A stretch of 64,000 nucleotides of DNA from a virus (lineage: Duplodnaviria; Heunggongvirae; Uroviricota; Caudoviricetes): the IMG/VR virus record IMGVR_UViG_3300012665_001805. The stretch is one strand, 5' to 3'. A model generated the notes under the pieces. The model was not told where the DNA came from and ran no database searches. It worked only from the letters and a program-made list of their open reading frames with translations. The position numbers and the translations under genes are program-made. Positions 16,055 through 31,979 of this stretch are shown here, piece by piece (within the stretch, counting starts at the first letter, position 1; each line of letters begins with the position of its first letter).

Positions 16055-16057
16055 GTT

Positions 16058-16910: not shown

Positions 16911-18083
16911 TTAATTTTTAATAAGCTCTTGTTGATATTCTATTAAACTAATTATCTCTATGGTAAATATGTCTAACTCAAATTTTCCTACCTCTCCACT
17001 TTCTTGTATAATGCTAGGCATTTGCATTAATAATTGGAAATTTTGTTGGGTCAATTGGTTAGCATCAAATTCAATTATAATGTCGTTTTCACTAATTGGG
17101 TCATTGTTATTTAAAGTAAATACTCGTTTTAATAAATTAAATGATGTATTTTCTTGTTCTCGATCTATATAAATATCAACTATATCTTGATTTTCAATAT
17201 AAATGCGATCACACCATGGTTCTAAAGCAGTTAATAATTGACCCGGGCAATTTTTTACCACGTAAGCAATGTTATATTTGGGTGCAACGATAGGTTCCAT
17301 TAAAGCGGTATGATTCACGTTTGAACCCCATTTACGAATAAATTCTAACGTAGATTTATCCATATCTTTTCTCCACTGTTCATGTCTTTCTTTATCACCA
17401 TCAAAACTACCTGCTCCTCTACCTGTTAAATGATATACTAATGAATTCCAAGGTTGAATAAATTCAAAACCATTTAATTTCATTCGATTAAATACATCCG
17501 AATCTTCTCTACACGAGTGCATAATTGGATCATGTCCACCCATTTCTAAGAATTCTTCTTTATACATCATCCAAGGGGCAAAAATACCATTTGTAATTTT
17601 ATCATCATCGGAATGTTCTTCTACATATTGATCAAATTCATCTTTTTTAAATTCTTCAGGATACATTCCAAAATCAATTAAGATTTTTTCTCCATTATTT
17701 GGGTGTAAAGGTGGTTCGATACGAGTAGCACATATTACTCTTTTTGATTTTAGATGATTATATGCTTTCCAATCTGCATTTTTACCTAACATCATATCAG
17801 CATGGAATATCATGAATACATCTGTTGTTGAATGTTCAATACAGTAATCATATGCTTTTCCAATTCCAAATAAACTTTCACCTAAATTTGGATTAACAAA
17901 ATATTTTAAATTATACTCATCTTTTACTTGCTCTAACCATTCAACTGTTCCATCTTCATCTGAATCAACGAAAACTATAATTTCATGGTCTTTTCTATAT
18001 GCATTTTCTCTAATAGAGGGGATACAAGTTTTAAGGTATCTTAAATTTGATTTACTGGGGATACAGAATGTTATTTGTTTCAT
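16911..18083 (-). CDS. family-2 (GT-A fold) glycosyltransferase
   Basis: N-terminal FCIPSKSNLRYLKTCIPSI...EIIVFVDSDEDGT typical GT2 signature; 390 aa. Confidence 0.6.
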   Translation of the reverse strand: MKQITFCIPSKSNLRYLKTCIPSIRENAYRKDHEIIVFVDSDEDGTVEWLEQVKDEYNLKYFVNPNLGESLFGIGKAYDYCIEHSTTDVFMIFHADMMLGKNADWKAYNHLKSKRVICATRIEPPLHPNNGEKILIDFGMYPEEFKKDEFDQYVEEHSDDDKITNGIFAPWMMYKEEFLEMGGHDPIMHSCREDSDVFNRMKLNGFEFIQPWNSLVYHLTGRGAGSFDGDKERHEQWRKDMDKSTLEFIRKWGSNVNHTALMEPIVAPKYNIAYVVKNCPGQLLTALEPWCDRIYIENQDIVDIYIDREQENTSFNLLKRVFTLNNNDPISENDIIIEFDANQLTQQNFQLLMQMPSIIQESGEVGKFELDIFTIEIISLIEYQQELIKN

Positions 18084-18757
18084 ATTTGAGAATAAGTTAT
18101 TTCTTGTTTAATAATGTTATATTTGTAAAGTAATTCTACCATTTCATCCCAAGGTTGTCTTGGAAAATGTGAATAATCTTGTCCTACTGGTTTAGTGTGG
18201 GTCATGATTATATCATCTATAATGGCGATTTTATCTTGAGGATAACCAAGTAAATGGGCCCATAAATAATCAAATCCCCAACTTGAATAATTTTCATCAA
18301 ATGTTTCGTATACTTTTAATAATGTATCCAAATTAAACATAGGTGCTAATACCTCTACAAAATTAGTATATCGTAATAAACTATTTTTAACAGGTTTAGT
18401 TATTTCATGAGACACATATCCATCCATTGATGGTTGACATATACTTAAATTTCTTTCTTTAGCAAAATCAAACAATCGATTTATTTCACTCGTAGATATT
18501 TTTACGTCATCATCAGGAAGCCAAATATGAGAATATTGTGAGATAAATTCTAAATTATCTTGAATGAATGCTTTAATAAGGGAAAATTTAGTTCCTTTAG
18601 CTGAGTATACGTGTGGGGTATATTTAAGATATGATATAGGAGTGTTAATGTCGTCTCCATAGTATAAGAATACTATATCAAAATTTGGTTCTTGTTGGAG
18701 CCATGTTTCACAAATAGATTTATCTCCTAAGGGTGATATGATTAAATATTTATCCAT
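18080..18757 (-). CDS. hypothetical protein in glycosylation island
   Basis: 225 aa, translationally coupled to flanking genes. Confidence 0.3.
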   Translation of the reverse strand: MDKYLIISPLGDKSICETWLQQEPNFDIVFLYYGDDINTPISYLKYTPHVYSAKGTKFSLIKAFIQDNLEFISQYSHIWLPDDDVKISTSEINRLFDFAKERNLSICQPSMDGYVSHEITKPVKNSLLRYTNFVEVLAPMFNLDTLLKVYETFDENYSSWGFDYLWAHLLGYPQDKIAIIDDIIMTHTKPVGQDYSHFPRQPWDEMVELLYKYNIIKQEITYSQI

Positions 18758-18759
18758 TC

Positions 18760-19551
18760 TTAAATTTCTATGATTTGACTTTCAGGGTATGGAAAATGAC
18801 ATATTCCTTCAATCATTATGTTTTTATGACTACAGTCATGTATAACGTTATCCTTTATAACTTGAAGAAGTATACGATATTTTTCTAATGGAATCAAGTG
18901 TAATTTTGATAAATCATTTCTTTCTACACAATTTTTTAATAAATCCTCACATGACCATCCTTTAATATACTCCCATATTCTTCCATTATAATCAGGAATG
19001 GTTTGAATATATTCATAGGTTTCATCTAAAAATGTTTTATCATTAAGAAAATCTGTTTTAGATACATTAATGAAATAAAAATTTGTTTGTGGATAAAATG
19101 CTTCCTCAATAATTCGTTCAAAATCAAAATCAAAAGGAACCATACCACCATATCCAACTCCATTCATATAATAAAAATCAGCATCACCAACTTCTTTTTC
19201 TAAAATAGAATCTTGAAAAACAACATCATTTGCTCCTTTACAAAGCCATTCTTCATTGTTTTCTTTACACCAATCAAAAATCAAATTATCTAGATCAGTA
19301 TAACCATGGTTATGACCTCGATTTAATTCTGAGTCTATTATGATGCAATCAGGAAAATATTTTTTCCATAATTTAGAATTTTCATTTTGAAATGGTAAAC
19401 CATAATTAGTAGCTACAGCAATTTGTTTAAATTCCTTTAAAACAGGTAAATTATAGAGAATATATGATTCTAACAAATCAATATCATCTTGAGATTTAAT
19501 GTACCCTATTGTACCATAAACCGATTTATTTATTAATTCCTTTAAGAGCAT
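18760..19551 (-). CDS. hypothetical protein in glycosylation island
   Basis: 263 aa. Confidence 0.3.
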   Translation of the reverse strand: MLLKELINKSVYGTIGYIKSQDDIDLLESYILYNLPVLKEFKQIAVATNYGLPFQNENSKLWKKYFPDCIIIDSELNRGHNHGYTDLDNLIFDWCKENNEEWLCKGANDVVFQDSILEKEVGDADFYYMNGVGYGGMVPFDFDFERIIEEAFYPQTNFYFINVSKTDFLNDKTFLDETYEYIQTIPDYNGRIWEYIKGWSCEDLLKNCVERNDLSKLHLIPLEKYRILLQVIKDNVIHDCSHKNIMIEGICHFPYPESQIIEI

Positions 19552-20272
19552 CGTTTAATTTATTTACATTCATTGTTGTATTTCCAGGGGTTTCTGGTGT
19601 TCTAAATGCTACCTCTACTGGAGTGGTTTGGGAAGCTAATTCAAATATGGTTTTTGGTTTAGTCCCTATATTGAATAGTCCAGTATTATTATTTTTTACT
19701 AATTGGATAATAAAATTAGACATAACATCTACATAATCAAAATTACCTGTTTGATCAATCCAAGCTTTATTATATGGGAATGGATTTGGTTTATGTGTTC
19801 CTCTACAAATTAGGTAATTATTTGATTTTAATTCAATATACGCATCACCTAATAATTTAGTATATGAATACCAGTTATTACCATGGATTGGAATATCATT
19901 TTCTGATGCTTCATTTATTGAATTGGTGTAAACATAATCTGTGGATACATGAACTAACTTAATATTCCATAGGTTACAAAAATCAGTTAAATCAGCTATA
20001 CCTTTATAATTTACATTCCAATGTTCTTCTTTACTATTTGAGTAAGTATTTGTATTAGCTATACAATTTAGTATAACATTATATTTAAAAGAAACAGCTA
20101 CTCCATCAAATACATCCATAAAATAATGGAAAAACTTATCGGGTTGGGTTATATCAAATCCATTTTCTTTCCTTGATATAATATCCCAACCCGTTTGTTT
20201 TTGGATTTCTGTTCCTAATAACCCGTTTCCTAAAATTACTACATTCATCCTTCCGAAAATACTTCTATACAA
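19526..20272 (-). CDS. NAD(P)-dependent sugar-nucleotide reductase/epimerase (RmlD-like)
   Basis: N-terminal Rossmann VVILGNGLLG; catalytic YxxxK (YSYTKLLGD). Confidence 0.5.
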   Translation of the reverse strand: MYRSIFGRMNVVILGNGLLGTEIQKQTGWDIISRKENGFDITQPDKFFHYFMDVFDGVAVSFKYNVILNCIANTNTYSNSKEEHWNVNYKGIADLTDFCNLWNIKLVHVSTDYVYTNSINEASENDIPIHGNNWYSYTKLLGDAYIELKSNNYLICRGTHKPNPFPYNKAWIDQTGNFDYVDVMSNFIIQLVKNNNTGLFNIGTKPKTIFELASQTTPVEVAFRTPETPGNTTMNVNKLNDALKGINK

Positions 20273-20446
20273 AGTACATTTTTATCATTTATTAAAATCA
20301 TTCTACCATCTTCAGTAGTTAACTTAGTAAATTGACCTTGTTTGATATACTCAGATCTAATATTTTCAAAGGTTCGTTTTTCACCACCTACAAAGTGGAT
20401 TATTTGAGTTACTACTTTACCTTGTTTTTTAATACTAGATTGTAAA

Positions 20447-21739
20447 TCAGTCATTTTTAAAGTTTTTAATAACAGATTCAATATAATCAAATACCTCTTG
20501 TGTATAGTGAGGAGCAGCTCCAATAAAGAATACTTTATCCAATACTTTATTTGCTTCAGGGTATTTTGATGAATCATCTAAGAAACTATATCCTGGGTGT
20601 AATAAGATGTTACCTGCAAAATAATTTCTTGTTTGGATTTTATTGTCTTCTAGGAATTGAACTAATTTATGTTTTAATCCTTCTTCCTCACAGATGAATG
20701 GTGTTCCAAACCAACATGGATCAGCTTTATCCAATGTTTTAGGTACTCTAAGTCCTGGGATATTGTATGTGAATATTTTTTCTAATGTTTCTTTAGATGT
20801 TTTACGATTAGCTTCAATTTCATCTAATTTTTTCAATTGTTCTATTCCAATAGCACCTTGTAAATCTAATGGTTTTAAGTTATAACCCATCTCAGAGAAA
20901 ACATATTTGTGATCAATGATACCGTCATATGAATCTAACCATTTATCAAATCGTTTACCACAGGTACCACATGATAATAAGTTAGCAGCACCTACACAGT
21001 AACAATCTCTACCCCACCAAGAAATACTAACCATTAATTTCTTTAATGCTTCATCATTGGTACAAACCATTCCTCCTTCACCTGTTGAAATGTGGTGAGC
21101 TGGGTAGAATGAATTGGAGAATGCTACATAATATTCGTTTAAATATTTACCATCCCATTTAGAACCTAAACTATCACAGTTATCTCCTACTAACAAGATG
21201 TTATATTTTTCAGCAATAGCTAATAAACGATCAAAATCCGGTGGATTACCTAATACAGGTGAAACAAAAATTGCTTTAGTTTTTGGTGTGATTTTTTGTT
21301 CAAGTAAATCTAAATCAAAATTTAACGTTTCCCATTCAATATCAATGAATACAGGCTTAAGTCTATGTTGGTGGATTACTGAAATTGTAGTTGCAAATCC
21401 TACAGGAGATACAATGATCTCATCATCATCTTCCCAATTAAATCGGCGTTTTAAGGCGGCTATAAGCACTAAATTGGCTGATGAACCGGAATTTACCATG
21501 TGAGAATATTTGGTATTGAATCGTTTTCCGAATTGTCTTTCAAATTTAAATACGCTTTCTCCAGTTGTAATCCATCTACCATTCAAGAATGAATCCATTG
21601 CGGCTTCAGTTTCTTTATTGTCCCAATAAGGACCAGAATAATAAATAGGGGTTTCACCCGGTTTAAATGTTTTGGCATTGTAAATGTATGGGGATACATG
21701 ATTGCCTACTAATGATTGGATGTTTTCTTTTGAAATCAT
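20447..21739 (-). CDS. DegT/DnrJ/EryC1-family PLP-dependent sugar aminotransferase or 3-dehydratase (RfbH/E1-like)
   Basis: 430 aa; MVNSGSSANLVLIAA, PLP-lysine region, length typical of CDP-6-deoxy-hexulose 3-dehydrase. Confidence 0.75.
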   Translation of the reverse strand: MISKENIQSLVGNHVSPYIYNAKTFKPGETPIYYSGPYWDNKETEAAMDSFLNGRWITTGESVFKFERQFGKRFNTKYSHMVNSGSSANLVLIAALKRRFNWEDDDEIIVSPVGFATTISVIHQHRLKPVFIDIEWETLNFDLDLLEQKITPKTKAIFVSPVLGNPPDFDRLLAIAEKYNILLVGDNCDSLGSKWDGKYLNEYYVAFSNSFYPAHHISTGEGGMVCTNDEALKKLMVSISWWGRDCYCVGAANLLSCGTCGKRFDKWLDSYDGIIDHKYVFSEMGYNLKPLDLQGAIGIEQLKKLDEIEANRKTSKETLEKIFTYNIPGLRVPKTLDKADPCWFGTPFICEEEGLKHKLVQFLEDNKIQTRNYFAGNILLHPGYSFLDDSSKYPEANKVLDKVFFIGAAPHYTQEVFDYIESVIKNFKND

Positions 21740-22605
21740 ATTTTAGATAATATATAGTTTGCTAAATTTTTAGTTGTTAAATTGTTTTTAGTATAATCAA
21801 ATAACTCATTTAATATAATAAAATATTTTTGCTCATCAAAGTTCCCTGCTAAATCTTTAGCTTCTAATAATAATTCCTTAGGCAAATTAGCTAATGTATT
21901 TTTAGGGCAATCTTCTAAACCAACGAAATAAGGAATACAATAATTTCCTAAAATTTCATAGTGTCTCATACAGTCCCACCCTGCTTTTTTCATAGTAACT
22001 CCATAATAAGATTTTTGGTAATCTTCAAAATATGGTTGTTCAGATTTAAAGACATAAGTTTCAGGTTGTCCAGGGATGCATGTAGCGTAGTCTTGTGTTT
22101 TGTTTAAATTAGGGATAGCTAATTTATCAGTTGGGATACCGAATGTGATAGGTAATAAATTTTTATGATCTTCTATTAACTCACGTTTAAAATATAAATG
22201 TTTGTGGTATAAAGGATCTAAATCGGATTCATCATTACCATCAATTAGTATAACTTTATTTGCGGGGTAATGTTTGGAAACTAGATCATAATAGTTTTTA
22301 CAACGTTTAATAGCACCATAAATGATTAAATCATAGTATTGGTCTTTGATTTTTTCTTCAATGTTAGTTCTATCAATATTATTATCTCCAATTAACCAAA
22401 ATGCAGTCATTCCACCCCATAAATTTTGTGTAGGTATTTTACCTTCATATTCTTTATAAAGTGAAACTATTGGAGTACTATCTACTACATCATCACCAAA
22501 TAATTCTCTCAATCCATAAAATACAAGATCGTTTTGATAATCGTTAATAAATCCACCACTAGCTCTAGCTATATCAATGTGATTTGTTATATATAATATT
22601 TTCAT
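21736..22605 (-). CDS. hypothetical protein in glycosylation island
   Basis: 289 aa. Confidence 0.3.
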   Translation of the reverse strand: MKILYITNHIDIARASGGFINDYQNDLVFYGLRELFGDDVVDSTPIVSLYKEYEGKIPTQNLWGGMTAFWLIGDNNIDRTNIEEKIKDQYYDLIIYGAIKRCKNYYDLVSKHYPANKVILIDGNDESDLDPLYHKHLYFKRELIEDHKNLLPITFGIPTDKLAIPNLNKTQDYATCIPGQPETYVFKSEQPYFEDYQKSYYGVTMKKAGWDCMRHYEILGNYCIPYFVGLEDCPKNTLANLPKELLLEAKDLAGNFDEQKYFIILNELFDYTKNNLTTKNLANYILSKI

Positions 22606-22606
22606 A

Positions 22607-23827
22607 TTAAGCTAATTTGAACTTTGGGAATGTTTTAAGATATTCATTTAATACCTTGTCTTCTAATTCTTGATCAATATATGGATTATGATTTTCACTA
22701 GTATAAAGCATTTCTAAAACTGATTTTAGTCTATACTGGATCATTTCTTCTTCATCAATATTTGGGTTGATGTCCATTTGGGTGATTCGTTCTTTCCAAA
22801 ATAGAGGAATTTCATCTAAAGTAAATTTATAATCTGCTCCTAATACATTTGAAGCATAATAATATTCACTTTTTGGATTAATGTTAACCCATCCTTCTTT
22901 TCTGTCATCATATCCATATCTTATTTGAATATTTTTTTCAAAGAATCCTTTTGGAATATCTAATGAAGGGGCTTGATCATTAGTTATACCATGATAAAAA
23001 TATCCATCATAATGTCTAGCTATTTCTCTATAAGGTATAACAATTTTTTGTTGTGGGGTAGGAATATTTAACAATTTATTTCTAATGAAATTTAAATCGG
23101 TAATACCCACTCCATCGATTCTAGGAAGTTCAATATGTCCTGTTTTAAATAAATTAGGAGGATAAAATTTTAAAGCATCATCCCAATTTCCTGTGCAAAA
23201 CCAATCTTCATATAGTTTTTTAGAAATAATATGAATACTATCATAACAATACCCCTCATAAGATACATAATTTTCTTCTAGTTTATAATTTATATTATAA
23301 AACATAGGAGCAACATCTCTATGTGTGTTTGTTGGACCTGCTTTTGCATTTCTCATAAACTCAGACCAATGACTTAAGGATAAAGTTACATAATCATGGG
23401 AATTATCTTCTTTTAATGATGTTAATATACGCTCAAGATATTCTGTTGAATAATCCATCAATACATGATCATGACTACAATAACAATGAACATAATCATC
23501 ATTAATTAATTCATATGTTTCGATCCAGTCTTGTTGAGTAACATTTCGGATATGAGAAAAATATAGGTCAAAATCTTTAAATTCTTCTCTTACATATTTT
23601 TCAAATTCTTCTTTAATTTCTTCAGAAGTATATTCGTCATCCAATTGAGCTTTAATAATAACGCGTTTCCAAGGATATGCTTTAGCAAAACTAGATAAAG
23701 TGTATTTTAATATATCAAGTTTATTATCCTGGATTAGATTACCTCTATCTTGGCTTACTCCATTTGCTTCCCAAGAACCTCCAGTAGCTGATTTATTAGT
23801 TATAAAAGTGTTTACTAAGAGAATCAT
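22607..23827 (-). CDS. hypothetical protein in glycosylation island
   Basis: 406 aa. Confidence 0.3.
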   Translation of the reverse strand: MILLVNTFITNKSATGGSWEANGVSQDRGNLIQDNKLDILKYTLSSFAKAYPWKRVIIKAQLDDEYTSEEIKEEFEKYVREEFKDFDLYFSHIRNVTQQDWIETYELINDDYVHCYCSHDHVLMDYSTEYLERILTSLKEDNSHDYVTLSLSHWSEFMRNAKAGPTNTHRDVAPMFYNINYKLEENYVSYEGYCYDSIHIISKKLYEDWFCTGNWDDALKFYPPNLFKTGHIELPRIDGVGITDLNFIRNKLLNIPTPQQKIVIPYREIARHYDGYFYHGITNDQAPSLDIPKGFFEKNIQIRYGYDDRKEGWVNINPKSEYYYASNVLGADYKFTLDEIPLFWKERITQMDINPNIDEEEMIQYRLKSVLEMLYTSENHNPYIDQELEDKVLNEYLKTFPKFKLA

Positions 23828-23828
23828 T

Positions 23829-24188
23829 TTAAATGTTTATATTTTTTATACCTGTATTTCTTTCTAAATTTATAGCGAATGCTGTTTCTTTTCCATCTGG
23901 TTTAAGATCATTAACTAAATAACGAGCTCCTCCACCTACACCCATGATTAATTGGTCATAGAATATCCCAGCATGTCTTAATTGTTTTTCAGTAACTTTC
24001 CTCATAGATTCTTTTCTTCCAGTAAGAAGAATAATATTATAACCTTTTCGTTCCCATTCAGATAATTTTGAAATAGTACAATCTAATAAAGTCATTTTAT
24101 GGGACGGCAATGTTGCTATTGGTGGTGGGGTATGGGTAACTAAAGTTCCATCAATATCACAAATAATTGTTTTAGGTCTCGTATCCAT
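23829..24188 (-). CDS. HAD-superfamily phosphatase (small, GmhB-like)
   Basis: motif I IICDIDGTLV; 119 aa. Confidence 0.55.
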   Translation of the reverse strand: MDTRPKTIICDIDGTLVTHTPPPIATLPSHKMTLLDCTISKLSEWERKGYNIILLTGRKESMRKVTEKQLRHAGIFYDQLIMGVGGGARYLVNDLKPDGKETAFAINLERNTGIKNINI

Positions 24189-25324
24189 TAAATAAATGTT
24201 ATGTTTGGATTAATATTATTTAAAATATCTTGTTTAATTTCTTCATTATATACTCCTGCTCTTAAAATTACTAATGCTTTTGGAACATCTTTTAAGATTT
24301 TAGGTGATTGAGAAATTAATCTAGTACCATAAAGGCGTTTATTTTCTTTTTTAGAATCATTATCTAATAAACACACTACATTAGAAATATCTAAACCGAA
24401 TGAAATTAAATATTGAGTAAAAACATGAGCCCCAAATACATAAATTGGCATAGATGAATTAGAAATTATATTATTTAAATTATTAACATCGGCAACATGA
24501 GAGTTAATGTAATCTGTAAAGATAGTCTTATTTAGGTCGTATAAATGTTCAGGTAATTCAACTGTTTTAGATTTAGTTGTTTTTTTAGCACAATAAAAGA
24601 TACTATGATCATTTTTAAAATATGATTTTTCTACTAATTCAAAACCGTACTTAGCCAACATATATTCAATATAAGGTTCAGTAAAATATATAGTATGCTC
24701 AAAATTAATACAATTAGTATATTTATTTTTTAACATAACTTCCATATTAGGAACCGAAAATATCAAATTATTCCCTTTCTTCATAAATGAAGATTTATGA
24801 CTTATAAATTCATCCGGGTTATAAACGTGTTCTAAAACGTGAGAGTGGATAACAGTATCAAATTTTTCTTTAGAAGTAAAATTATTATCAAAGAAACCTT
24901 GAATTACATTAACTGGGATATTTTCAGGGATAATAGGATTTGGTTCTATGATGGTCCATTTTAGGTTTGGATTTGTTTGGAGACATTTTTGGGCTAAAAT
25001 ACCATGTAATCCTCCAATTTCTAAAATATTAGTTCCATCAAATTTATTTACAAAATCAGCAAATGCTTGATGGTGTTCGTCCCAAGCTTTTCCTACTGTA
25101 CCCGATCCATGTTCTGAATTATATACTACATCTAATGGTAATAAGGGATTAAGTTGGATAGCTCCTGAGTTTTTACTAATTTTCCAACTCATATCAAATA
25201 GGATATCATCTTTGGGAGCAGAATCAACACATCCCATGAATACTGGGAAATTTGGGAATGTATGTAAATCTTCTAAATCGTTATTATCTAAAATAACATC
25301 ATTATTTCTATTTATAGAGTTCAT
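24188..25324 (-). CDS. class I SAM-dependent methyltransferase (sugar C/O-methyltransferase-like)
   Basis: motif I ILEIGGLHGILAQ; 378 aa with extra C-terminal domain as in NDP-hexose C-methyltransferases. Confidence 0.45.
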   Translation of the reverse strand: MNSINRNNDVILDNNDLEDLHTFPNFPVFMGCVDSAPKDDILFDMSWKISKNSGAIQLNPLLPLDVVYNSEHGSGTVGKAWDEHHQAFADFVNKFDGTNILEIGGLHGILAQKCLQTNPNLKWTIIEPNPIIPENIPVNVIQGFFDNNFTSKEKFDTVIHSHVLEHVYNPDEFISHKSSFMKKGNNLIFSVPNMEVMLKNKYTNCINFEHTIYFTEPYIEYMLAKYGFELVEKSYFKNDHSIFYCAKKTTKSKTVELPEHLYDLNKTIFTDYINSHVADVNNLNNIISNSSMPIYVFGAHVFTQYLISFGLDISNVVCLLDNDSKKENKRLYGTRLISQSPKILKDVPKALVILRAGVYNEEIKQDILNNINPNITFI

Positions 25325-26282
25325 TTAATTTATTTTTTATATTATTTTTAATTTTGTAATCTATTCCTAAAAAATTCATTTTAATATGCTCTATAAAATC
25401 AGGATGAGATAAAACATAATGACCACAGATTTTTATTAAATCTATCTTTTGAGTGAATGGATCAAAATCAGCATTTACCCATTTTTCCCATTTTTTAGAT
25501 TCATAACATATATTAAAAAATGTCTCTAACATTTCAGGATCCTTGATTTCATCCAAATATGTTTGGGTTTCTATTAATCCAAATTCAGGGGCAATATTAA
25601 TAGCATCTAATCCTAAATCAAATTTTTCTTTAATAACGGATACAGGAATATAATCACCATTGTGTTCTTTAGATAATAAGTTATGTTTTTTAGCAACATT
25701 TACCATATCGATTAAACGCTGGCTATCATAATGACCTGTTTGGTTAGTTCCTTTTAATGAAGTACCTGATTGGATTACTAGGAATTTAATTTTGGAGAAT
25801 AATTCTTCTCCTAATTTATCTTTTAAATCATTAACTAAATTATCTAATTCTTCAACCTCAAAACGACGAATTGCTTCTTCTGTACCAACTTCATACAATA
25901 AATCACTATTAAGAGCATCACAATGTTTAATCATGTTAATAGTATATTCTAATCCATCTTCATACTTAGGATATTTTTTCCATGGGTCTATATGAATCAA
26001 ATCTAGATATTTACTATCTACACTTAGAGAATTATAACCATCATCTTCTACTTTTCCTTGTCCTGGACCTGAGTGGTCTCTTTGTAGGGGGATATTTTTG
26101 GATTTGGATTTAACATATTCTGAAAATTCAGAAGTGGACCAATTATGAACATATCCTCGAGTTGATTCTACTTGTCTCCGAGATGGAATCAAGCCTATAC
26201 TATTATTGGTTTCATTACAGAACTCTATAATAGTATCTACAACATTTTTAGACATGGGACCTATAAAAATTTTTGGTGTCAT
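25308..26282 (-). CDS. GatZ/KbaZ-like (tagatose-bisphosphate aldolase accessory-family) protein, tentative
   Basis: N-terminal pattern IFIGPMSKNVVDTIIEF...LIPSRRQVES similar to GatZ N-terminus; weak. Confidence 0.3.
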   Translation of the reverse strand: MTPKIFIGPMSKNVVDTIIEFCNETNNSIGLIPSRRQVESTRGYVHNWSTSEFSEYVKSKSKNIPLQRDHSGPGQGKVEDDGYNSLSVDSKYLDLIHIDPWKKYPKYEDGLEYTINMIKHCDALNSDLLYEVGTEEAIRRFEVEELDNLVNDLKDKLGEELFSKIKFLVIQSGTSLKGTNQTGHYDSQRLIDMVNVAKKHNLLSKEHNGDYIPVSVIKEKFDLGLDAINIAPEFGLIETQTYLDEIKDPEMLETFFNICYESKKWEKWVNADFDPFTQKIDLIKICGHYVLSHPDFIEHIKMNFLGIDYKIKNNIKNKLNELYK

Positions 26283-27820
26283 GATTTTAAGTTTTTGTAT
26301 AAATTATATTTACCGAAATTAAATAAAAATGTACTAAATGGATATTCATGAAGTGGAGCCATATTTATCCAAACTATAGAAGTAAGAACTTTTACTTTTC
26401 TCAAATCAAAATTATTATTCTCTATGAAGGAATGTAAAACTCCTCTACATTCATTTAATTTACTATTTATTAGAATATAACAATCCTCTTTTGAGGATCC
26501 AAATAAGTTTTTATTTACTATATCATGATTGATAGTTAAATTGTGATTTAATTTAGCTAAATCATAGTATAAATCTCCAACTTCTAAATCATTAGCAAAA
26601 TCTTGTCTCCAATCTATAAGTTTAAATCCATCTTGGGTTTCAATAACGTTATCTAAAATAAAATCACCGTGGAATTGGGATGGAATACCATCACATAACC
26701 AATCAATATTTATCTGATCAATTAAATCATATATTGAAGGGATTAATTCACCATTAATGTATTCTGGTTTATCATTATCTGAATTAAGGTATTGATGGAT
26801 TCGTTTTTTGGTTTTAGAGATATAGAAATCATAACATTTGGTTTGAAAATCTACATCCTCTTTTTTAACCCATAAATTATCAGATGACCAATTTAAAAAT
26901 GTTATAAATTTACTTCTATTAACAGATTTAGAAAATAAATTTCCTTCTGCTTTTTTATATTTGTAAAAATTTTCAGTTGAACCTATCATATCAGGTACTA
27001 AACCTTTTAACTTATTAGCTCGAGTTACTCTATTGTTATTAATTGTTGAATTAGAGAAAAATTTAATTACAAAATCATCAAAGAAAAATATAGATTCATC
27101 TACTTTATCTAAAACTTCAATACTAGAATGAAATGCTTTTCTGGTTTTACTTAGTTCGGATGTGTTTCCGATATCAAACCAATTAGATCCATTTGTTTTT
27201 CTATTAGTAAATTTAACTTCAGACAACATATTATTTATAGCATGTACATCTGAGGTGTCTTCATGTCCACTATAAATAAGTTTTTCAAGTTGATAGAAGA
27301 ATAATTCAAAATCTTTTATTCCGGCTATTCCAACATATGAAAAATCAAAATTTAATTCACCTTTTTCATTTATCTTGATTAACTTATCAGCATCTAAATG
27401 TAATGTTCTGTATTGGGCTGAATCTTCTTTATGTGAACTCACAACATAATTGTAAGATGGATATTCAGGATGATAATTAGTCATTATCGTATCTGAAGCA
27501 TGGAACATAAATGGGGAGTTTATATAGTGTTTGCATTGTAGGAGAGAATATCCTAAACTACTACCTTCACCTTTATATTTATCTATTTCAACAAATGTAA
27601 AATTTCTATCAGGGTAAGCTAATTCAATAAATTGTTTAACATGAGATCCAAAATGTCCTAAAGTTATAATAAATTGAGTATTAACGGGGTAAGACTCAAT
27701 AATATAGGATATTGCGGGTTTGTCTGTTACTCTGATTAAGCATTTATTAGTATAATCTGTTAGTTGCCCTAATCTGCTACCTAAACCACTTGTTGTGATT
27801 AATACTTTATACTCTTCCAT
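26279..27820 (-). CDS. bifunctional sugar-phosphate nucleotidyltransferase / kinase (LicC-LicA-like)
   Basis: N-terminal TSGLGSRLG (GxGxRL NTP-transferase motif); C-terminal HGDFILDNVI..DW (APH/choline-kinase Brenner motif). Confidence 0.7.
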   Translation of the reverse strand: MEEYKVLITTSGLGSRLGQLTDYTNKCLIRVTDKPAISYIIESYPVNTQFIITLGHFGSHVKQFIELAYPDRNFTFVEIDKYKGEGSSLGYSLLQCKHYINSPFMFHASDTIMTNYHPEYPSYNYVVSSHKEDSAQYRTLHLDADKLIKINEKGELNFDFSYVGIAGIKDFELFFYQLEKLIYSGHEDTSDVHAINNMLSEVKFTNRKTNGSNWFDIGNTSELSKTRKAFHSSIEVLDKVDESIFFFDDFVIKFFSNSTINNNRVTRANKLKGLVPDMIGSTENFYKYKKAEGNLFSKSVNRSKFITFLNWSSDNLWVKKEDVDFQTKCYDFYISKTKKRIHQYLNSDNDKPEYINGELIPSIYDLIDQINIDWLCDGIPSQFHGDFILDNVIETQDGFKLIDWRQDFANDLEVGDLYYDLAKLNHNLTINHDIVNKNLFGSSKEDCYILINSKLNECRGVLHSFIENNNFDLRKVKVLTSIVWINMAPLHEYPFSTFLFNFGKYNLYKNLKS

Positions 27821-28151
27821 AGTTATCTTCTAATCGTACAATATCATCTTCTCCAAAATACTCACCTAATTGAACTTCAATAAAGATTAAATCTTCAATT
27901 CCTGTATTTTTGATTTGGTGTTTAGCTTTTAAAGGGATATTTATGATTGATCCTAAAGAAATTGGAAATATTTCATCATCCAATTTAAGTTCTCCACTAC
28001 CTTGGATTATAACCCAAACTTCTTTCCTTTTAAAATGATATTGATAACTAGGAGCTTGACCTGGTTTAATAATAATTTGTTTGACTTTACATAATGGGCT
28101 ATCTAATAAATTTTCAAATTCGCCCCAAGGTCTTTGTTCTTTATAATTCAT
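27807..28151 (-). CDS. cupin-fold protein (sugar isomerase/epimerase-like)
   Basis: 114 aa small barrel, G-x5-H-x-H-like pattern (YQYHFKRKEVWVIIQGSG). Confidence 0.45.
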   Translation of the reverse strand: MNYKEQRPWGEFENLLDSPLCKVKQIIIKPGQAPSYQYHFKRKEVWVIIQGSGELKLDDEIFPISLGSIINIPLKAKHQIKNTGIEDLIFIEVQLGEYFGEDDIVRLEDNYGRV

Positions 28152-28771
28152 AACGTATTGTAATAACTGTTTTGTTTTTCTTGTTTGTCTATTGTTTTTG
28201 GATGATATAAAGCAAAATATTCTACATCTGGTAACATAGTATATGTTTTAAATCCATCTAATCGCTCATGTACTTTATTTACCCATTTGATTTCGGGTAC
28301 ATTTCTCCAAATACGCCATTGAAAATCAGGCCAATTAACCCATCCAGTATCGGTTACATTCCATCCCCATTTTGCGATATGTTCGGGAGTTAAACCTTCA
28401 ACTGTATTTACTCGAGGAACTAGATAAATGTCCATTTCAGGATTAAGTTCTATAATTTCGGGTAATGCTTGAATTAAATCTTCTGATGGGTATTCATCAG
28501 CATCGATTTGAAAGATATAATCCCCATTGCACAGACTGGTTAATTTATTTTTCCAGTCTGCGAAATGTTTCTCAAATTTTCCTTTATGCCATACAAATTC
28601 TCCATTTGTAGAATGTGAACGAAGGAAGGCCTCGATTTCAGGATCACCATTTGCTTCATCATATAAAATCACTATATTGTCTTGTATACGTTTGTGATTA
28701 AGCAAAAAATGCACTAAACGTTGAATTTCTTTAAATTCATTACAGACTGTGATGGCATAACTTATTTTCAT
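28148..28771 (-). CDS. family-2-like glycosyltransferase
   Basis: ITVCNE...ILYDEANGD and DxD (QIDADEY). Confidence 0.5.
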   Translation of the reverse strand: MKISYAITVCNEFKEIQRLVHFLLNHKRIQDNIVILYDEANGDPEIEAFLRSHSTNGEFVWHKGKFEKHFADWKNKLTSLCNGDYIFQIDADEYPSEDLIQALPEIIELNPEMDIYLVPRVNTVEGLTPEHIAKWGWNVTDTGWVNWPDFQWRIWRNVPEIKWVNKVHERLDGFKTYTMLPDVEYFALYHPKTIDKQEKQNSYYNTL

Positions 28772-28776
28772 ATATC

Positions 28777-29241
28777 TTATTCAGGTAATATCCCAATATA
28801 TGAAAGAGCATCCATATAATCACGTTCTTCAAACGTTTTCATATTCTTCATATCCATTTTATATTTCATGAATTCTCCAGGTTTGCCGGGGATTGGATGT
28901 TTTTTCTGGTCTTTTTTAGGGATTTCGATTGCTCTAACAGCAGCCCATCTCCAATTTAAAGCATTTGTACCGTTAGCAAATACCATACCTTTATCTTCAA
29001 CATTAATAGTATTTGGTAACCAAATCAATCCTGTTTTAGTATCAGTCCAAGCTAAATCTTTATACAACTCAGGTAATGTTTCCATTTGTTGTTTATAGAA
29101 TTCATGGTCTTCAGTCATAAATGAGTTAGTCCAGAATCCACATGAAATACTCATGTAAGTGTAAATTTCAGGGGCAACTTGTACTTTATAGCACAAGTCA
29201 CCTCCAGATTTAGGGCAATTTATAATTTCTTCGTGTTGCAT
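28777..29241 (-). CDS. hypothetical protein
   Basis: 154 aa. Confidence 0.3.
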   Translation of the reverse strand: MQHEEIINCPKSGGDLCYKVQVAPEIYTYMSISCGFWTNSFMTEDHEFYKQQMETLPELYKDLAWTDTKTGLIWLPNTINVEDKGMVFANGTNALNWRWAAVRAIEIPKKDQKKHPIPGKPGEFMKYKMDMKNMKTFEERDYMDALSYIGILPE

Positions 29242-30530
29242 TATTCTACTGGTTTTAGTTTTGGTAGTTCAATTTTTTTCAATTTAGGTAATTGCAATTG
29301 AACTTGTTTTGGAAATTCAGGAATTTTATTTGTAAATACTTCATCCAATTTAGCTTTCATAGCTTCAAATGAGAATTTAGTTCTACTTTGGAAACCTTGA
29401 CGCTTTGCATTGTCAGTATAGTTTTTATAATTTTCAAATACATCTTTTAAGTAATGACCTACATTTCCATGATCTACACTAAACCATTCTGCATCTGCTA
29501 ATAACATATTATTTGCAGCTGATGGGTGTACTTTAGTCAGTATACCTGGTAGAAGTGTTACAAATTCTGGGTTTAAGTAATCTGTATGACCACTCCAATT
29601 TGTTGTAATTAGTGGTTTGTTTGTTAATGAGAACTCAAGTAATGGTCGACCAAATCCTTCTCCTTTAGTTAAGTTAATCATTGCTTTAACCTTAGAGTGA
29701 TTATAAATCTCATTCATCTCAGCATCAGTAAATTCACCATGTAACAAATATACATTTGGTAAGTTGTTTGAATTAACTGTATCTTTAATCATTTGGATAC
29801 GTCTAATCAATTCATCTCTATCCATATAAGACGAACCTACTTGTGATGTTTTTAGGATTAATGCTGGTTTTTTGCTTTTATTTTTAAACGTTTCATAAAA
29901 CGCTTTTACCAACAAACCTACATTTTTTCTATCTTCACCTAATTGTCCTTGCATCCAGTGACCTACAAACAAATAAGCAAATTCTTCTTTTACATTAGAT
30001 AAATCAAATGTTGATTTTACTGGTTTATATACATCCGTATTAGCACCTTCAAAAATAACTTCACCATCACCTTTCCATTCAATATATCCTACTGTTTGGT
30101 TTGTTTGTTGATCACGTTTTTCAAATTTACTATCTTTTAATACTTTAATAGTATGTTCAGATGAACCTAAAATCAAATTCATACGTTCACAACCTTCAAC
30201 CCATTCTGCAGGGGCAATTGTTGTTTCAATACCTGCGGTACATCCAATGTTATATTTTCCAATTGGTTGGAATTCATTTGGAACTGTAATCTGCATCCAA
30301 ATTTCTGGTTGGGATGGTAATTGTGGGGAACTTAATAAATGTTTTACTAAAAATTCCCATTCAGGATTATCTTTAATAAATCCTTTAGGAGTAGCACCCC
30401 ATCGTTGAGGTAAAACTTTTACTTCATATTTATCTAATTCAATAATCGCTTTAACGATATCGCGAGAACGTGCTCCATAACCTGAATAGGTATCAATGGG
30501 GCAGCTTATTACAAAAGTTGGTTTACTCAT
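29241..30530 (-). CDS. GT-B fold glycosyltransferase (GT4-like)
   Basis: C-terminal TKGEGFGRPLLEFSLTNKPLITTNWSG = E-x7-E GT4 motif. Confidence 0.7.
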   Translation of the reverse strand: MSKPTFVISCPIDTYSGYGARSRDIVKAIIELDKYEVKVLPQRWGATPKGFIKDNPEWEFLVKHLLSSPQLPSQPEIWMQITVPNEFQPIGKYNIGCTAGIETTIAPAEWVEGCERMNLILGSSEHTIKVLKDSKFEKRDQQTNQTVGYIEWKGDGEVIFEGANTDVYKPVKSTFDLSNVKEEFAYLFVGHWMQGQLGEDRKNVGLLVKAFYETFKNKSKKPALILKTSQVGSSYMDRDELIRRIQMIKDTVNSNNLPNVYLLHGEFTDAEMNEIYNHSKVKAMINLTKGEGFGRPLLEFSLTNKPLITTNWSGHTDYLNPEFVTLLPGILTKVHPSAANNMLLADAEWFSVDHGNVGHYLKDVFENYKNYTDNAKRQGFQSRTKFSFEAMKAKLDEVFTNKIPEFPKQVQLQLPKLKKIELPKLKPVE

Positions 30531-30539
30531 AACTATTTT

Positions 30540-31979
30540 TTAATATACAAATTTGTGATTAATTGTTGGTTCTTTAACGTCATTAACGTTGATTAACTCA
30601 TATTTTTCTCGCGGAATCCACGTGTTAAATAATTGATCTATCGCCATAATTGCTTTAATTCCCATATCTTCTGCTGTAAAACCTACGTCATTAATAGCCC
30701 AATGTCTACCTGTTTGACCAAGTTCTTTACGTTCTGCTCTATCCAAAGCATATACTTTACCAATTTGAACAGCTGCATCTTCTGCATTACATCTATCGTC
30801 CCAAATATATGGAGTTTTAGGAGAACCTTGCATTGAACGGTTAGTTGGGAATACTGGGAATGCCCATACACCATGATTTTTATATCGTCCTGTATGGTTT
30901 GAAGGGATTTCTGGAGTTGGTGTGTACCAATTTCCAAATTCATCTTCAAATCCCATTTGATCTTGCATACCACCTGTTACGTTAGCGATAATAACAGTTC
31001 CTGCTAAAATTGCTTCTGTTAATGATAGACCCCATCCTTCATTTGATGTTAATAAGATTTGAGCATCTGCAATATTATACAATTGATTCAATTGTTTAGT
31101 ATCTAATTTATTTTGAGAGAAATAAATAGCATTTGGGTAATCAGGGAATAATACTTTACGTACTGCTTCTAAATCAGTTCCATGTTCACTTACTATCTCA
31201 GTATGCATAATCATAGCACATTTAGCTGCTTTTTCTTTAGGTAATGTATCTAAGAAAATTTTAAAGGCAAGCATTGTATCAGGAATTTGTTTACGTCTGA
31301 TGTTTCTTGAATTGAAAAATACAACAAAATCTTTTTCTTTACCTCCAAATAAAGTAGATTTGAATTGCTCAAGTTCTTTCAATTCATCTTCTTTTTCAAT
31401 TGGGTAATACATTTCATGATTTAAACCATGGGGAACGTATTCAATGATTTTTTTACCTCGTTTTTCATCCAAAACCAATTCATTGATTAATCGTGTTTGT
31501 TTTGAAATTGCTAACAATGCATCACATGACTCATAAAATGCTTTGTTATACAATGGAGCTGGGTAGTCATCCCAAATATTTAAATAAATAATTGGTGTTG
31601 TTTTTCTAATTTCATTTTCAATCATGAATAACCACTCAAAGTATCTTGGATCTGTAATCAACATGATTGCATCTGGTTTTTCCAATTCAATCAATTGTCT
31701 AATTAAATCAGCATCACCATATCCATCTACTGGGTATAAAAATACAGATGAATCTTCTAATCCTGTATTAGTGTTGGTATCTCCACTTAAATCAAAACGT
31801 TTACCTTTCTCAGGGTGATTTATTGCTCCAGCAACGTTTACCCAATTAAAATGTTGGGCTGTGTTTAAAACTAATTCGCGTGCTACAGTCGCTACACCTG
31901 AGTGTACTCGAATATCATCACAAATTAATAGGATTTTTTTCCTCTCATTCTGAGGTAGGTACTTAAAACTTGAATTCAT
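30540..31979 (-). CDS. GT-B fold glycosyltransferase (GT4-like)
   Basis: TSNEGWGLSLTEAILAGTVIIANVTGG. Confidence 0.65.
   Translation of the reverse strand: MNSSFKYLPQNERKKILLICDDIRVHSGVATVARELVLNTAQHFNWVNVAGAINHPEKGKRFDLSGDTNTNTGLEDSSVFLYPVDGYGDADLIRQLIELEKPDAIMLITDPRYFEWLFMIENEIRKTTPIIYLNIWDDYPAPLYNKAFYESCDALLAISKQTRLINELVLDEKRGKKIIEYVPHGLNHEMYYPIEKEDELKELEQFKSTLFGGKEKDFVVFFNSRNIRRKQIPDTMLAFKIFLDTLPKEKAAKCAMIMHTEIVSEHGTDLEAVRKVLFPDYPNAIYFSQNKLDTKQLNQLYNIADAQILLTSNEGWGLSLTEAILAGTVIIANVTGGMQDQMGFEDEFGNWYTPTPEIPSNHTGRYKNHGVWAFPVFPTNRSMQGSPKTPYIWDDRCNAEDAAVQIGKVYALDRAERKELGQTGRHWAINDVGFTAEDMGIKAIMAIDQLFNTWIPREKYELINVNDVKEPTINHKFVY

Follow-up and report, generated by a model that had tools for sequence, protein, structure and literature searches.

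That viruses carry glycosylation genes of their own is already known from mycobacteriophages, chloroviruses, Megavirinae, and the cyanomyophages and pelagimyophages that have lipopolysaccharide (LPS)-type genes. In mycobacteriophages, glycosyltransferases (GTs) reportedly glycosylate structural proteins of the phage (capsid, tail tube), as Freeman et al. are said to have described in 2023 (cited in PMC12619734 and PMC11256854). Their genes reportedly lie near the structural genes. Among the giant viruses, chlorovirus capsids bear N-glycans with a conserved core, and the Megavirinae have clade-specific clusters of 6 to 33 genes (PMC9614988). Here we describe an island of nucleotide-sugar and GT genes in a 64,000-nucleotide stretch of DNA from a tailed phage (IMG/VR record IMGVR_UViG_3300012665_001805), the whole of which is called the window below. 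The island occupies positions 16911-31979 on the minus strand and combines a fixed frame, inherited with the phage backbone, with a cassette of ca. 11 kb that close relatives have replaced in its entirety and distant ones can have in common. With moderate confidence, we read it as a phage-encoded, entirely cytoplasmic glycan-building locus whose acceptor is a phage protein, probably one or more proteins of the virion surface.

The mechanism favoured here would be that of the mycobacteriophages, i.e., phage GTs acting in the cytoplasm on virion proteins. However, those systems consist of few GTs, with or without a methyltransferase, belong to actinobacteriophages and lie by structural genes, whereas the island has at least 5-7 transferase candidates and two sugar-nucleotide branches, and is found in the replication region of a Bacteroidota phage. 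With the clusters of giant viruses it shares virus-encoded rare bacteria-like sugars, soluble GTs without host export machinery, and a conserved core with variable parts. Their hosts are eukaryotic, though, and their variation is found between clades and not between near-identical strains; the sequence relationship amounts to one 27.6-bit GT-B match (to chlorovirus B736L, the best PDB match of the frame protein GT4a, E 9.6e-6), and the acceptor of B736L is not established (PMC9614988). Bacterial O-antigen and capsule loci (Wzx/Wzy or ABC) resemble the island in their conserved flanks, their replaceable cassette of lower GC content and its recombinational exchange, and have families in common with the phage cassettes (RfbH, RmlD, Gmd, DegT, NeuB, GT2/GT4). 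Unlike them, the island is virus-borne and contains no initiating phosphoglycosyltransferase, flippase, polymerase, chain-length regulator or exporter. The LPS-type islands of pelagimyophages and cyanomyophages are also hypervariable, rich in GT and sugar genes, and carried by large aquatic myophages, but they are located in the tail-fibre “host recognition cluster” of the structural module and dominated by GT8 (PMC7029224). The island of the window instead forms a separate, operon-like array within the replication region, built on a defined conserved frame.

By protein comparison, the window groups with the Flavobacterium phage vB_FspM_immuto (Immutovirus, 160 kb; immuto from here on). Its proteins match dozens of open reading frames (ORFs) of the window at 30-80% identity, including GroEL/GroES, the endolysin, thymidylate synthase and the FolE/QueD/QueE/QueC/DpdA 7-deazaguanine genes. 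This relatedness is visible at the protein level only: DNA-level searches with the window gave next to no matches, and the island had no megablast match among 50,697 phage records. The replication module comprises a family B polymerase (40691-43420), a 244-amino-acid (aa) protein and a clamp-loader-like AAA ATPase (35029-35952), and is syntenic with that of Microcystis phage Mel-JY01 and not with that of immuto, which has a PolA. The Mel-JY01-like PolB module, set against the family A polymerase of immuto, indicates a mosaic backbone, with parts like those of a Bacteroidota phage and parts like those of a cyanophage. A protein identical to the 513-aa nucleotidyltransferase-kinase of the island (NT-kinase) is present on a JGI contig of 171,535 bp, from which a source genome of ca. 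171 kb follows; the window comes from such an immuto-like genome, that of a large freshwater phage, and the host is probably a freshwater member of the Bacteroidota. All the long ORFs of the window are on the minus strand, and its GC content is ca. 33%, with the exception of an array of 25 tRNA genes at 10985-13996.

The island itself is an unbroken array of 17 co-oriented genes on the minus strand, running from 31979 down to 16911 inside the region of replication and nucleotide metabolism. From GT4a to GT2b, neighbouring genes either overlap, by 1-28 nt, or lie no more than 9 nt apart, and both the strand and the tight packing continue unbroken across the two borders. The first-pass annotation, made from the sequence alone, had described a nucleotide-sugar and glycosyltransferase island of about 17 tightly packed, co-oriented genes within a phage replication and metabolism region, and the ORF listing bears this out. 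What it missed is the main structural point, a conserved frame with an exchangeable cassette. The frame consists of four proximal genes, GT4a (30540-31979, 479 aa), GT4b (29241-30530, 429 aa), a small protein with a Zn-ribbon-like N terminus (hyp154, 28777-29241) and GT2a (28148-28771, 207 aa, the final frame gene before the cassette), together with a distal GT2 (GT2b, 16911-18083, 390 aa) at the semi-conserved end of the island; between them they bracket the cassette of ca. 11 kb. The proximal border is formed by a PD-(D/E)XK nuclease (32254-33189, Pfam PDDEXK_1 86.6 bits) and a 65-aa protein (32013-32210), the distal one (15401-16888) by proteins of 58, 124 and 103 aa and a homolog of HNH endonucleases, all of them on the minus strand.

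In immuto, the order is PD-(D/E)XK nuclease, small ORF, GT4, GT4, small protein, GT2, seven unrelated sugar genes, GT2, small ORFs and HNH. The borders and the frame are therefore arranged as in the window, with 39-60% identity for the frame proteins, and the interior is different. The cassette of immuto has WecE-type aminotransferases, a methyltransferase, a mannosyltransferase, an acetyltransferase-like “pilin glycosylation protein” and an epimerase, in contrast to that of the window, which has the NT-kinase module and an RfbH/RmlD pair. No functional study of the immuto sugar block was found in the literature, where the block is annotated only. A scan of IMG/VR with GT4a recovered 255 matching stretches, of which 80 loci with GT4a identities of 70-94% were kept for the frame survey. 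The nuclease, the 65-aa protein and GT4a were present in 80/80, and GT4b, hyp154 and GT2a in every locus whose contig reaches that far. The order of the proximal border is identical in immuto, Mel-JY01, the 170.5-kb relative L085 and the 80 IMG/VR loci, and homologs of the distal border follow the variable region, in the same order, in immuto, L034/36, L041, L046, L054, L057, L066/67 and L091. Even the frame of Mel-JY01 has three of the transferases in the same position, by PolB, the clamp loader and the nuclease, at 34-43% identity (GT4a 50% over the first 163 residues). The HNH endonuclease homolog (15401-16054) marks the distal border in the window, immuto, L041, L057, L066/67 and L091, and such a border nuclease could promote cassette exchange at a recombination hot spot.

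An E-x7-E motif in the C-terminal domain is diagnostic for GT4, and both GT-B-type frame proteins have one. GT4a (EGWGLSLTE, residues 314-322) matches Pfam Glycos_transf_1 with 33.6 bits (cut-off 26.4) and is 55.6% identical to immuto gp181. GT4b (EGFGRPLLE, residues 291-299) scores 22.5-24.8 bits with the Pfam GT1 families, below cut-off, but matches PHROG 2170 “glycosyltransferase” over nearly its full length (1.2e-18, residues 6-401) and is 56% identical to immuto gp180 and 43% to its Mel-JY01 counterpart, making it a probable member of GT4. A role for GT4b as an inactive partner of GT4a, as in pairs of the GtfA/GtfB type, is not supported, since the motif is kept in both. The protein hyp154, found in ca. 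50 loci and 39% identical to immuto gp179, has no match in Pfam, PHROG or PDB; its invariant residues are C9, C17, C34, W74, P76, W97 and W99. GT2a, with a GT-A fold, matches Glycos_transf_2 with 32.1 bits (cut-off 23.3), has a DAD at residues 90-92 and is 60% identical to immuto gp178; its matches to GmaR (E 0.0034) and SunS (E 0.0056) are weak. GT2b (Glycos_transf_2, 46.5 bits) carries several DxD motifs and is 47% identical to immuto gp169, 78% identical to its homolog in L041 and 40-47% to those in L057, L058 and L064, while other loci have a different GT2 in this position.

The interior of the island behaves in the opposite way to the frame. Cassettes were compared over the 10 kb downstream of GT4a at each locus, and almost none of the cassette genes of the window appeared in the 80 IMG/VR frame loci; the cassette was wholly different even where the frame is 85-94% identical. 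Among the 28 loci with at least five cassette families, none shared more than 13% of them with the window, at GT4a identities of up to 94%. Clustering at 30% identity resolved the 246 cassette ORFs of 35 loci into 127 families, 79 of them singletons, and across 406 locus pairs the mean Jaccard index of cassette families was ca. 0.03 where the GT4a proteins are 70-99% identical and rose to 0.875 from 99% upwards. Conversely, locus L089 has the cassette of the window, collinear from the cupin to u263 and 68-89% identical, with a frame that is only 43-60% identical. A cassette that is closer than the frame around it indicates that cassettes move between backbones. The GC content is 28.3% in the cassette, 32.4% in the frame and 33.0% in the remainder of the window, and the variable span ranges from ca. 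3 to 11 kb in different phages. A Pfam census of 149 representative cassette proteins revealed a repertoire typical of rare-sugar synthesis, with Gmd and other short-chain dehydrogenase/reductase (SDR) epimerases and dehydratases, RmlD-type reductases, DegT aminotransferases, PseB/CapD-type enzymes, NeuB, hexapeptide acyltransferases, FkbM and other methyltransferases, GT2, GT11 and PhyH dioxygenases. Turnover at the level of strains suggests an exposed structure, and acceptor-side GTs fixed in hundreds of environmental phages next to cassettes that change this fast are the signature of a surface structure under diversifying selection. The frame-plus-cassette architecture, the near-total turnover between close relatives and the sharing of cassettes between distant ones appear new in the literature searched. 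GT and “LPS” genes of phages are usually listed as auxiliary metabolic genes, with their function guessed, and this locus offers a clear, testable architecture.

Two sugar-nucleotide branches can be recognized in the cassette. The first is a block of six genes, namely a cupin (27807-28151, 114 aa), the NT-kinase (26279-27820, 513 aa), a protein of 324 aa (TIM324, 25308-26282), an S-adenosylmethionine (SAM)-dependent methyltransferase of 378 aa (MT378, 24188-25324), a small HAD-superfamily phosphatase (23829-24188, 119 aa) and a protein of 406 aa (u406, 22607-23827), which recurs as a unit in four further phage loci (L085/86, L089, L090 and L092). The cupin is of the type II phosphomannose isomerase (PMI)-like kind (Pfam MannoseP_isomer 96.7 bits; NCBIfam GMP_PMI C-terminal region 103 bits), is 79-81% identical in L085, L089, L090 and L092, and is always located directly upstream of the NT-kinase. 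The latter has no Pfam match above threshold. Its N-terminal half, with the motif GLGSRL at residues 12-17, matches the NCBIfam sugar-1-phosphate nucleotidyltransferase profile Arch_glmU (47.8 bits, residues 6-234), and its best PDB match, to LicC (E 8.5e-5, 24.8 bits), scores below that. The C-terminal half would be a kinase of the APH/ChoK fold: the match to Pfam APH is weak (E 0.012, residues 383-424), a Brenner-type motif is present (HGDFILDN, 384-391, with a later D), and the residues of the kinase motif are invariant in 20 homologs. For the HAD protein, Pfam HAD_PNKP (31 bits) and Acid_phosphat_B (30.5 bits) were recovered, NCBIfam HAD-IIIA/IIB stayed below cut-off, and the DxD nucleophile is DID at 11-13. 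MT378 matches Methyltransf_23 (57.6 bits) and, at E 0.0092, Methyltransf_14, and its C-terminal domain resembles sugar C-methyltransferases.

TIM324 had no Pfam or NCBIfam match at E values up to 10. Its AlphaFold2 model (pLDDT 85.3) has 3txv, of the GatZ/KbaZ family, as top Foldseek match (E 8e-11, TMq 0.72), followed by class II fructose- and tagatose-bisphosphate aldolases and by UxaE/tagatose 4-epimerases; a profile match to KbaY (E 0.0012, 21 bits) was also found. The model thus points to a GatZ-like fold, i.e., of the class II aldolase type, in a protein that is not a family member by sequence profile, and to a candidate ketose-phosphate C4 epimerase or aldolase. GatZ/KbaZ of Escherichia coli are C4 epimerases that convert fructose-6-phosphate to tagatose-6-phosphate (PMC11907403).

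From the domain and fold results and the recurrent neighbourhood, we infer a phosphomutase-independent route from a ketose phosphate to a methylated rare sugar activated with a nucleoside diphosphate (NDP). It would start at a central ketose phosphate, e.g., fructose-6-phosphate, which the GatZ-like TIM324 may epimerize or rearrange and the PMI-like cupin may isomerize to an aldose phosphate. The kinase half would then phosphorylate C1, the HAD phosphatase strip the distal phosphate and the nucleotidyltransferase half activate the sugar, without any phosphomutase; MT378 would methylate it, at a step that is not fixed, and the adjacent u406, a divergent protein of predicted GT-A fold, is the candidate for its transfer. 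The GmhA-HldE-GmhB heptose pathway and Fkp are the established precedents. Heptose activation (GmhA, HldE/HddA, GmhB, HldE/HddC) and Fkp resemble this branch in combining an isomerase, an anomeric kinase, a HAD phosphatase and a nucleotidyltransferase with no phosphomutase, and Fkp-type bifunctional salvage enzymes have, as the NT-kinase does, kinase and nucleotidyltransferase fused. Compared with heptose activation, however, all four folds differ or are distant (a cupin and not SIS, an APH fold and not a ribokinase or GHMP kinase), and a GatZ-like enzyme and a methyltransferase are added.

A module of this kind exists in bacteria too, though rarely. In 185,579 bacterial species genomes, relatives of the NT-kinase were found at six loci, all in metagenome-assembled genomes, and five of them are 43-45% identical over the full length. 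The two loci inspected (L093 and L095) are both genuinely bacterial, and in them the NT-kinase lies between a SIS-domain sugar-phosphate isomerase with a ribulose-phosphate 3-epimerase and a HAD hydrolase. In L093, a homolog of MT378 (44% identical, Methyltransf_14 29 bits, cut-off 23.5), transferases and a Wzx-type flippase follow on the HAD side. Phage and bacterial sets have the same functions (epimerase, isomerase, kinase/nucleotidyltransferase, phosphatase and methyltransferase), but the folds of the first two steps differ. In metagenomes, homologs are very common, 2904 for the NT-kinase and 4269 for TIM324, many of them on contigs of 160-190 kb. Those of the NT-kinase in JGI data are named alternately “choline kinase” and “NDP-sugar pyrophosphorylase,” and the first-pass annotation had called its arrangement a LicC/LicA architecture. 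This is correct as a description of the folds, but the activation of choline by LicA/LicC was set aside on the gene neighbourhood, which favours a sugar over choline, in the phage (isomerase, epimerase-fold protein and phosphatase) and in bacteria (SIS isomerase and ribulose-phosphate 3-epimerase). Profile scans gave no match to a LicD-type phosphocholine transferase among the island proteins. The module of NT-kinase, GatZ-like protein, cupin, HAD phosphatase and methyltransferase, uncharacterized and so common in metagenomes, appears new in the literature searched. With thousands of homologs and no characterized member, it may represent a new way of making a rare activated sugar.

In the 170.5-kb relative L085, the module forms part of a much larger island (5452-21560). 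This also contains a full TylC3-type sugar C-methyltransferase (Methyltransf_13/23/14), an epimerase/dehydratase, an RmlC-like isomerase, a DJ-1 family protein and thiamine pyrophosphate-dependent E1 and transketolase-like subunits, a content that suggests the synthesis of branched-chain sugars.

The second branch comprises an enzyme of 430 aa (20447-21739, Pfam DegT 235.6 bits) and an RmlD-like short SDR of 248 aa (19526-20272, Pfam RmlD_sub_bind 57.4 bits). The 430-aa protein scores 368.4 bits with NCBIfam RfbH (NF011936), under the equivalog cut-off of 423, and aligns end to end with the E1 dehydrase (CDP-6-deoxy-L-threo-D-glycero-4-hexulose 3-dehydrase; PDB 3bcx, 267 bits); ColD follows at 187 bits. 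The Schiff-base Lys is replaced by His, in SFYPAHHI (residues 210-217), which aligns with the SFYPAHHIT of wild-type E1, and the engineered aminotransferase-like variant of E1 (3bb8) has K at the position of that His. Cys246, Cys248, Cys257 and Cys260 (DCYC...C..C) align with the cysteine region of E1 and are candidate ligands of a [2Fe-2S] cluster; DCYC is conserved, and the other two cysteines come after a 4-residue insertion relative to E1. By sequence, it is a close relative of RfbH, not a certified ortholog, that is, a putative E1/RfbH-type, pyridoxamine phosphate-dependent NDP-4-keto-6-deoxyhexose 3-dehydratase. Close relatives of the enzyme are found in a huge uncultured phage (68%) and several Synechococcus phages (57%). 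A ColD-type dehydratase, free of Fe-S, was rejected on the E1 score (267 vs 187 bits) and the presence of the cysteines. The SDR, a candidate NDP-4-ketohexose reductase, has the motifs GNGLLG (15-20) and YSYTK (135-139), scores 50.2 bits with NCBIfam rmlD, far under the cut-off of 224, and has an uncertain start, at the TTG at 20272 or at an ATG eight codons downstream.

Between the two lies a small conserved protein of 69 aa (sm69, 20245-20454), which corrects the ORF of 110 aa called at 20245-20577. It is homologous to immuto gp176 (62.7% over 67 aa, 66.7% over 57 aa; PHROG 17175, E 5e-4), also beside a DegT-family gene. In 5/5 loci (L001, L007, L058, L082 and L089), sm69, 63-90% identical across loci, directly adjoins a DegT-family gene, and the adjacency is kept even where the DegT protein is only 26-29% identical and of the aminotransferase and not the dehydratase type. 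In L007, the trio RfbH, sm69 and RmlD comes directly after GT2a. The small protein may be a partner, or a fixed landmark inside the variable region.

This branch would start from a host-made NDP-4-keto-6-deoxyhexose. The E1/RfbH enzyme would remove the 3-OH, with a host flavodoxin or ferredoxin reductase in place of E3, and the RmlD-like reductase would reduce C4 to give a 3,6-dideoxyhexose. The CDP-3,6-dideoxyhexose pathway of Yersinia and Salmonella (RfbF/G/H/I; E1/E3) has in common with it the E1-like enzyme with catalytic His and cysteine region and a 4-ketoreductase-type SDR, but its glucose-1-phosphate cytidylyltransferase, 4,6-dehydratase and E3 reductase were not found among the window ORFs scanned. 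As these yielded no 4,6-dehydratase, no E3 or ferredoxin-NADP-reductase-type reductase and no Fer2 domain, the NDP-4-keto-6-deoxyhexose and the reducing power must come from the host. The claim of the first-pass annotation that the genes are enough to build an unusual sugar stands for the kinase/nucleotidyltransferase branch and fails for this one.

Its gene-by-gene domain calls nearly all passed profile or structure tests. Of its two GT2-like and two GT4-like GTs, GT2a, GT2b and GT4a are above the Pfam cut-off and GT4b was recovered through PHROG 2170 and E-x7-E, and the DegT/RfbH-like, RmlD-like, SAM methyltransferase, HAD and cupin calls were all matched by Pfam profiles. Several genes it had left as unknowns now have candidate roles. 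These are TIM324, for its GatZ/KbaZ-like fold, and two GT-A-type candidates, u406, by its fold (the PDB-sequence profile search gave no match), and a DUF707 protein of 225 aa (18080-18757, 45.9 bits, cut-off 24.1), a possible further transferase of a family that we take to belong to the GT-A clan. Two cassette proteins remain without a match, u289 (21736-22605, 289 aa; Pfam, NCBIfam and PHROGs), 88% identical in L089 and 64% in L055, and u263 (18760-19551; Pfam, NCBIfam, PHROG and PDB). The latter recurs in otherwise different cassettes, with homologs 59-72% identical in seven of them (L055, L057, L064, L065, L066/67 and L083), usually as the second gene after GT2a, and its invariant residues include the stretches NRGHN.G and SHKN.

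What the glycan is attached to has to be judged from the proteins that are there and from those that are not. By a crude hydropathy test, no island protein has a 19-residue Kyte-Doolittle segment with a mean of at least 1.6, no protein of the whole window has more than three hydrophobic segments or looks like a multi-pass membrane protein, and of the 247 cassette ORFs from 35 relatives a single one has at least two such segments. Neither the island, the 64-kb window nor the cassettes of the 35 relatives yielded a priming phosphoglycosyltransferase, flippase, polymerase, ligase or ABC exporter; in the bacterial locus L093, by contrast, the Wzx-type flippase is found beside the same module. Soluble proteins without flippase or priming enzymes indicate that the machinery is cytoplasmic, and the absence of membrane components throughout so many cassettes appears new in the literature searched. 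The frame is conserved in phages with hosts of different phyla. The best PDB matches of its GTs, all weak (E 1e-5 to 1e-2), are B736L, the serine-rich repeat protein O-GlcNAc transferase Gtf1 and the flagellin O-GlcNAc transferase GmaR, and a distant homolog of GT4a in cyanophage S-CBS4 is located between the portal and the head-protease/capsid genes, with a galactosyltransferase and a methyltransferase. By analogy, conservation across phyla, structural matches and S-CBS4 context point, weakly, to a protein or virion acceptor. The frame transferases would recognize this acceptor and lay down a constant core, to which the cassette would add strain-specific outer sugars, with DUF707, u263, u289 and GT2b as candidates for the remaining transfers. 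The result would be a strain-variable glycan coat, comparable to the particle glycosylation of mycobacteriophages and giant viruses.

Several points weigh against a virion acceptor and the chemistry proposed for it. No paper reporting a glycoprotein for this phage lineage was found in the literature searched, and the island lies among replication genes, between the nuclease/replication block and small ORFs and tRNAs, and not by capsid genes. The PDB matches that hint at protein acceptors are weak, and GT-A and GT-B folds do not reveal the type of acceptor. Soluble GTs can work on undecaprenyl-linked intermediates at the inner membrane face, using host flippases, and the lack of membrane proteins therefore does not exclude a target in the host envelope; similar islands of pelagimyophages have been published as modifying the host O-chain (PMC7029224). 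The cassette data are limited to the 10 kb per locus given above, the second branch is incomplete in the window, and the substrates and step order of the first are predicted from folds and neighbourhood only: the GatZ-like protein could be an aldolase instead, and MT378 could act on the glycan.

In its widest form, which we put forward only tentatively, the proposal is that abundant freshwater and marine Bacteroidota phages and a cyanophage relative have glycan-coated particles, with a frame-laid core and outer sugars switched by cassettes as phage “serotypes,” in parallel to the O-antigen variation of bacteria, and a new route to an NDP-sugar. The widespread module of PMI-like cupin, GatZ-like epimerase, APH-fold anomeric kinase-nucleotidyltransferase and HAD phosphatase would then lead, independently of a phosphomutase, to an NDP-activated methylated rare hexose. 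The coat could shield the particles, or bait the glycan-binding uptake systems of polysaccharide-foraging hosts. If the virion acceptor holds, the making of a glycan coat of one's own would extend from mycobacteriophages and giant viruses to tailed phages that infect Gram-negative aquatic bacteria, here with serotype-like switching, and this would bear on adsorption, particle stability, grazing and the reading of “islands” in viral metagenomes. Since immuto is cultured, the choice between virion, host surface and DNA as acceptor is directly testable.

The strongest competitor, to which we give a smaller but real share of probability, is remodelling of the host envelope: soluble GTs would decorate undecaprenyl-linked precursors of O-antigen or capsule, host flippases would export them, and superinfection or the re-adsorption of progeny to lysed cells would be blocked. 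The gene content is like that of O-antigen and capsule loci, the bacterial homologs of the NT-kinase module belong to true polysaccharide loci that include Wzx and GT4, the diversification of cassettes could also result from competition between phages, and the hypervariable, GT-rich islands of pelagimyophages and cyanomyophages were so interpreted by their authors (PMC7029224). Set against this are the export, priming, polymerase and ligase genes missing from island, window and the 35 sets of relatives' cassettes, and the conservation, in place and at 34-43% identity, of the three frame GTs in a Microcystis phage, the envelope acceptors of whose host should be unrelated. Known seroconversion systems (GtrABC, Oac) are carried by temperate phages and are small, with one to three genes, membrane proteins among their products. 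By hydropathy and Pfam, no membrane flippase, transferase or acetyltransferase of the GtrABC/Oac type was found in the island; no integrase was seen in the window, and the phage looks like a large virulent myophage.

Another cytoplasmic acceptor, i.e., a host protein, a small molecule or lipid, or the queuosine-family bases of tRNAs, seems improbable. All the island enzymes are soluble, as it would require, and the phage has 25 tRNAs, including those for Asp, Asn, His and Tyr, and 7-deazaguanine genes; the queuosine glycosyltransferases of eukaryotes belong to GT4 and GT2. Nevertheless, hypervariable rare-sugar cassettes imply diversifying selection on an exposed glycan and fit poorly with a target inside the cell such as a tRNA or metabolite. 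Moreover, the window ORFs scanned included none for the cyclopentenediol moiety of queuosine, and the island has no carrier or biosynthetic genes for a small-molecule aglycone. The specific case of queuosine-tRNA glycosylation, suggested by GT4/GT2 enzymes together with tRNAs and 7-deazaguanine genes, was considered unlikely given those cassettes.

The first-pass annotation had also offered hypermodified DNA as a target, with the GTs glycosylating 5-hydroxymethyl pyrimidines or 7-deazaguanines against restriction, and this is now very unlikely. The island does lie among genes of replication and nucleotide metabolism, beside a nuclease, with a ThyA homolog and the DpdA/preQ0 pathway in the window, and phage enzymes that put diverse glycans on DNA have been described (Pyle 2024, as cited in PMC12619734). 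But in the DNA of immuto, which has the homologous frame, liquid chromatography-ultraviolet-mass spectrometry found canonical dA, dC and dT and, in place of all the dG, fdPreQ1 (324 Da); glycosylated nucleosides were not among the species found (PMC10516641). In addition, the motifs of the ThyA homolog are those of a canonical thymidylate synthase and its identity to the immuto protein is 55%, no hydroxymethylase-specific feature was found, preQ0 and preQ1 lack a hydroxyl to glycosylate, and a multi-GT, strain-variable cassette for rare sugars is far more elaborate than the well-known systems of DNA glycosylation. An artefact, bacterial polysaccharide-locus DNA misassembled onto phage DNA, could be suspected from the drop in GC from 33% to 28% inside the cassette and the bacterial-locus-like content but is scarcely credible and leaves the phage origin standing, with both borders and five island genes syntenic in the cultured, completely sequenced immuto and in dozens of independent contigs (synteny extends to Mel-JY01 and more than 250 viral contigs), strand and packing running across the borders, the same cassette order in the independent contig L089, and bacterial homologs of the NT-kinase at only six loci in the 185,579 genomes, the nearest just 43-45% identical.

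The thymidylate synthase homolog (52831-53931) has an insertion of ca. 100 residues with respect to the Pfam model (366 aa vs 266 positions; the immuto ortholog has 423 aa) and keeps RTGTGT, PPCH and LGLPFNIASY. The 7-deazaguanine set spans 43714-50662, with FolE (44391-45089), a phosphoribosyltransferase (45823-46317), QueE (46317-47099), QueD (47390-47866), QueC (48657-49556) and a DpdA-like protein (49865-50662) that is 34% identical to immuto DpdA3. No homolog of the QueF or the DpdN formyltransferase of immuto was found in the window, so that its DNA may carry a preQ0-level base rather than fdPreQ1.

Elsewhere in the window, the protein at 54323-54754, for which a cytidylyltransferase had been proposed, is indeed a CTP_transf_like nucleotidyltransferase (TIGR00125 37 bits, cut-off 27.7). 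It matches RfaE domain II with 42 bits, far below cut-off, and has no homolog in immuto 1-70 kb; the same family is found inside the glyco island of L085, and a functional link to the island of the window is possible. A scan for sigma-70 promoters and terminators gave fewer sites than shuffled controls, with a model that does not cover Bacteroidota promoters. GroEL (545 aa, 59% identical to that of immuto) and GroES (37567-39502) adjoin the replication genes. The tRNA array (10985-13996, minus strand, local GC ca. 0.47) covers most amino acids and includes three tRNA-Met-type genes. Beside it, an RNA ligase (6554-7705), a P-loop kinase-like protein (7916-8299) and a metallophosphoesterase (9670-10377) hint at a tRNA repair set. 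Finally, a protein of 345 aa at 59750-60787, 55% identical to immuto gp013, has a C-type lectin domain (Pfam Lectin_C, 63 bits); in a phage that makes glycans, it is worth a look as a candidate receptor-binding or glycan-binding component.

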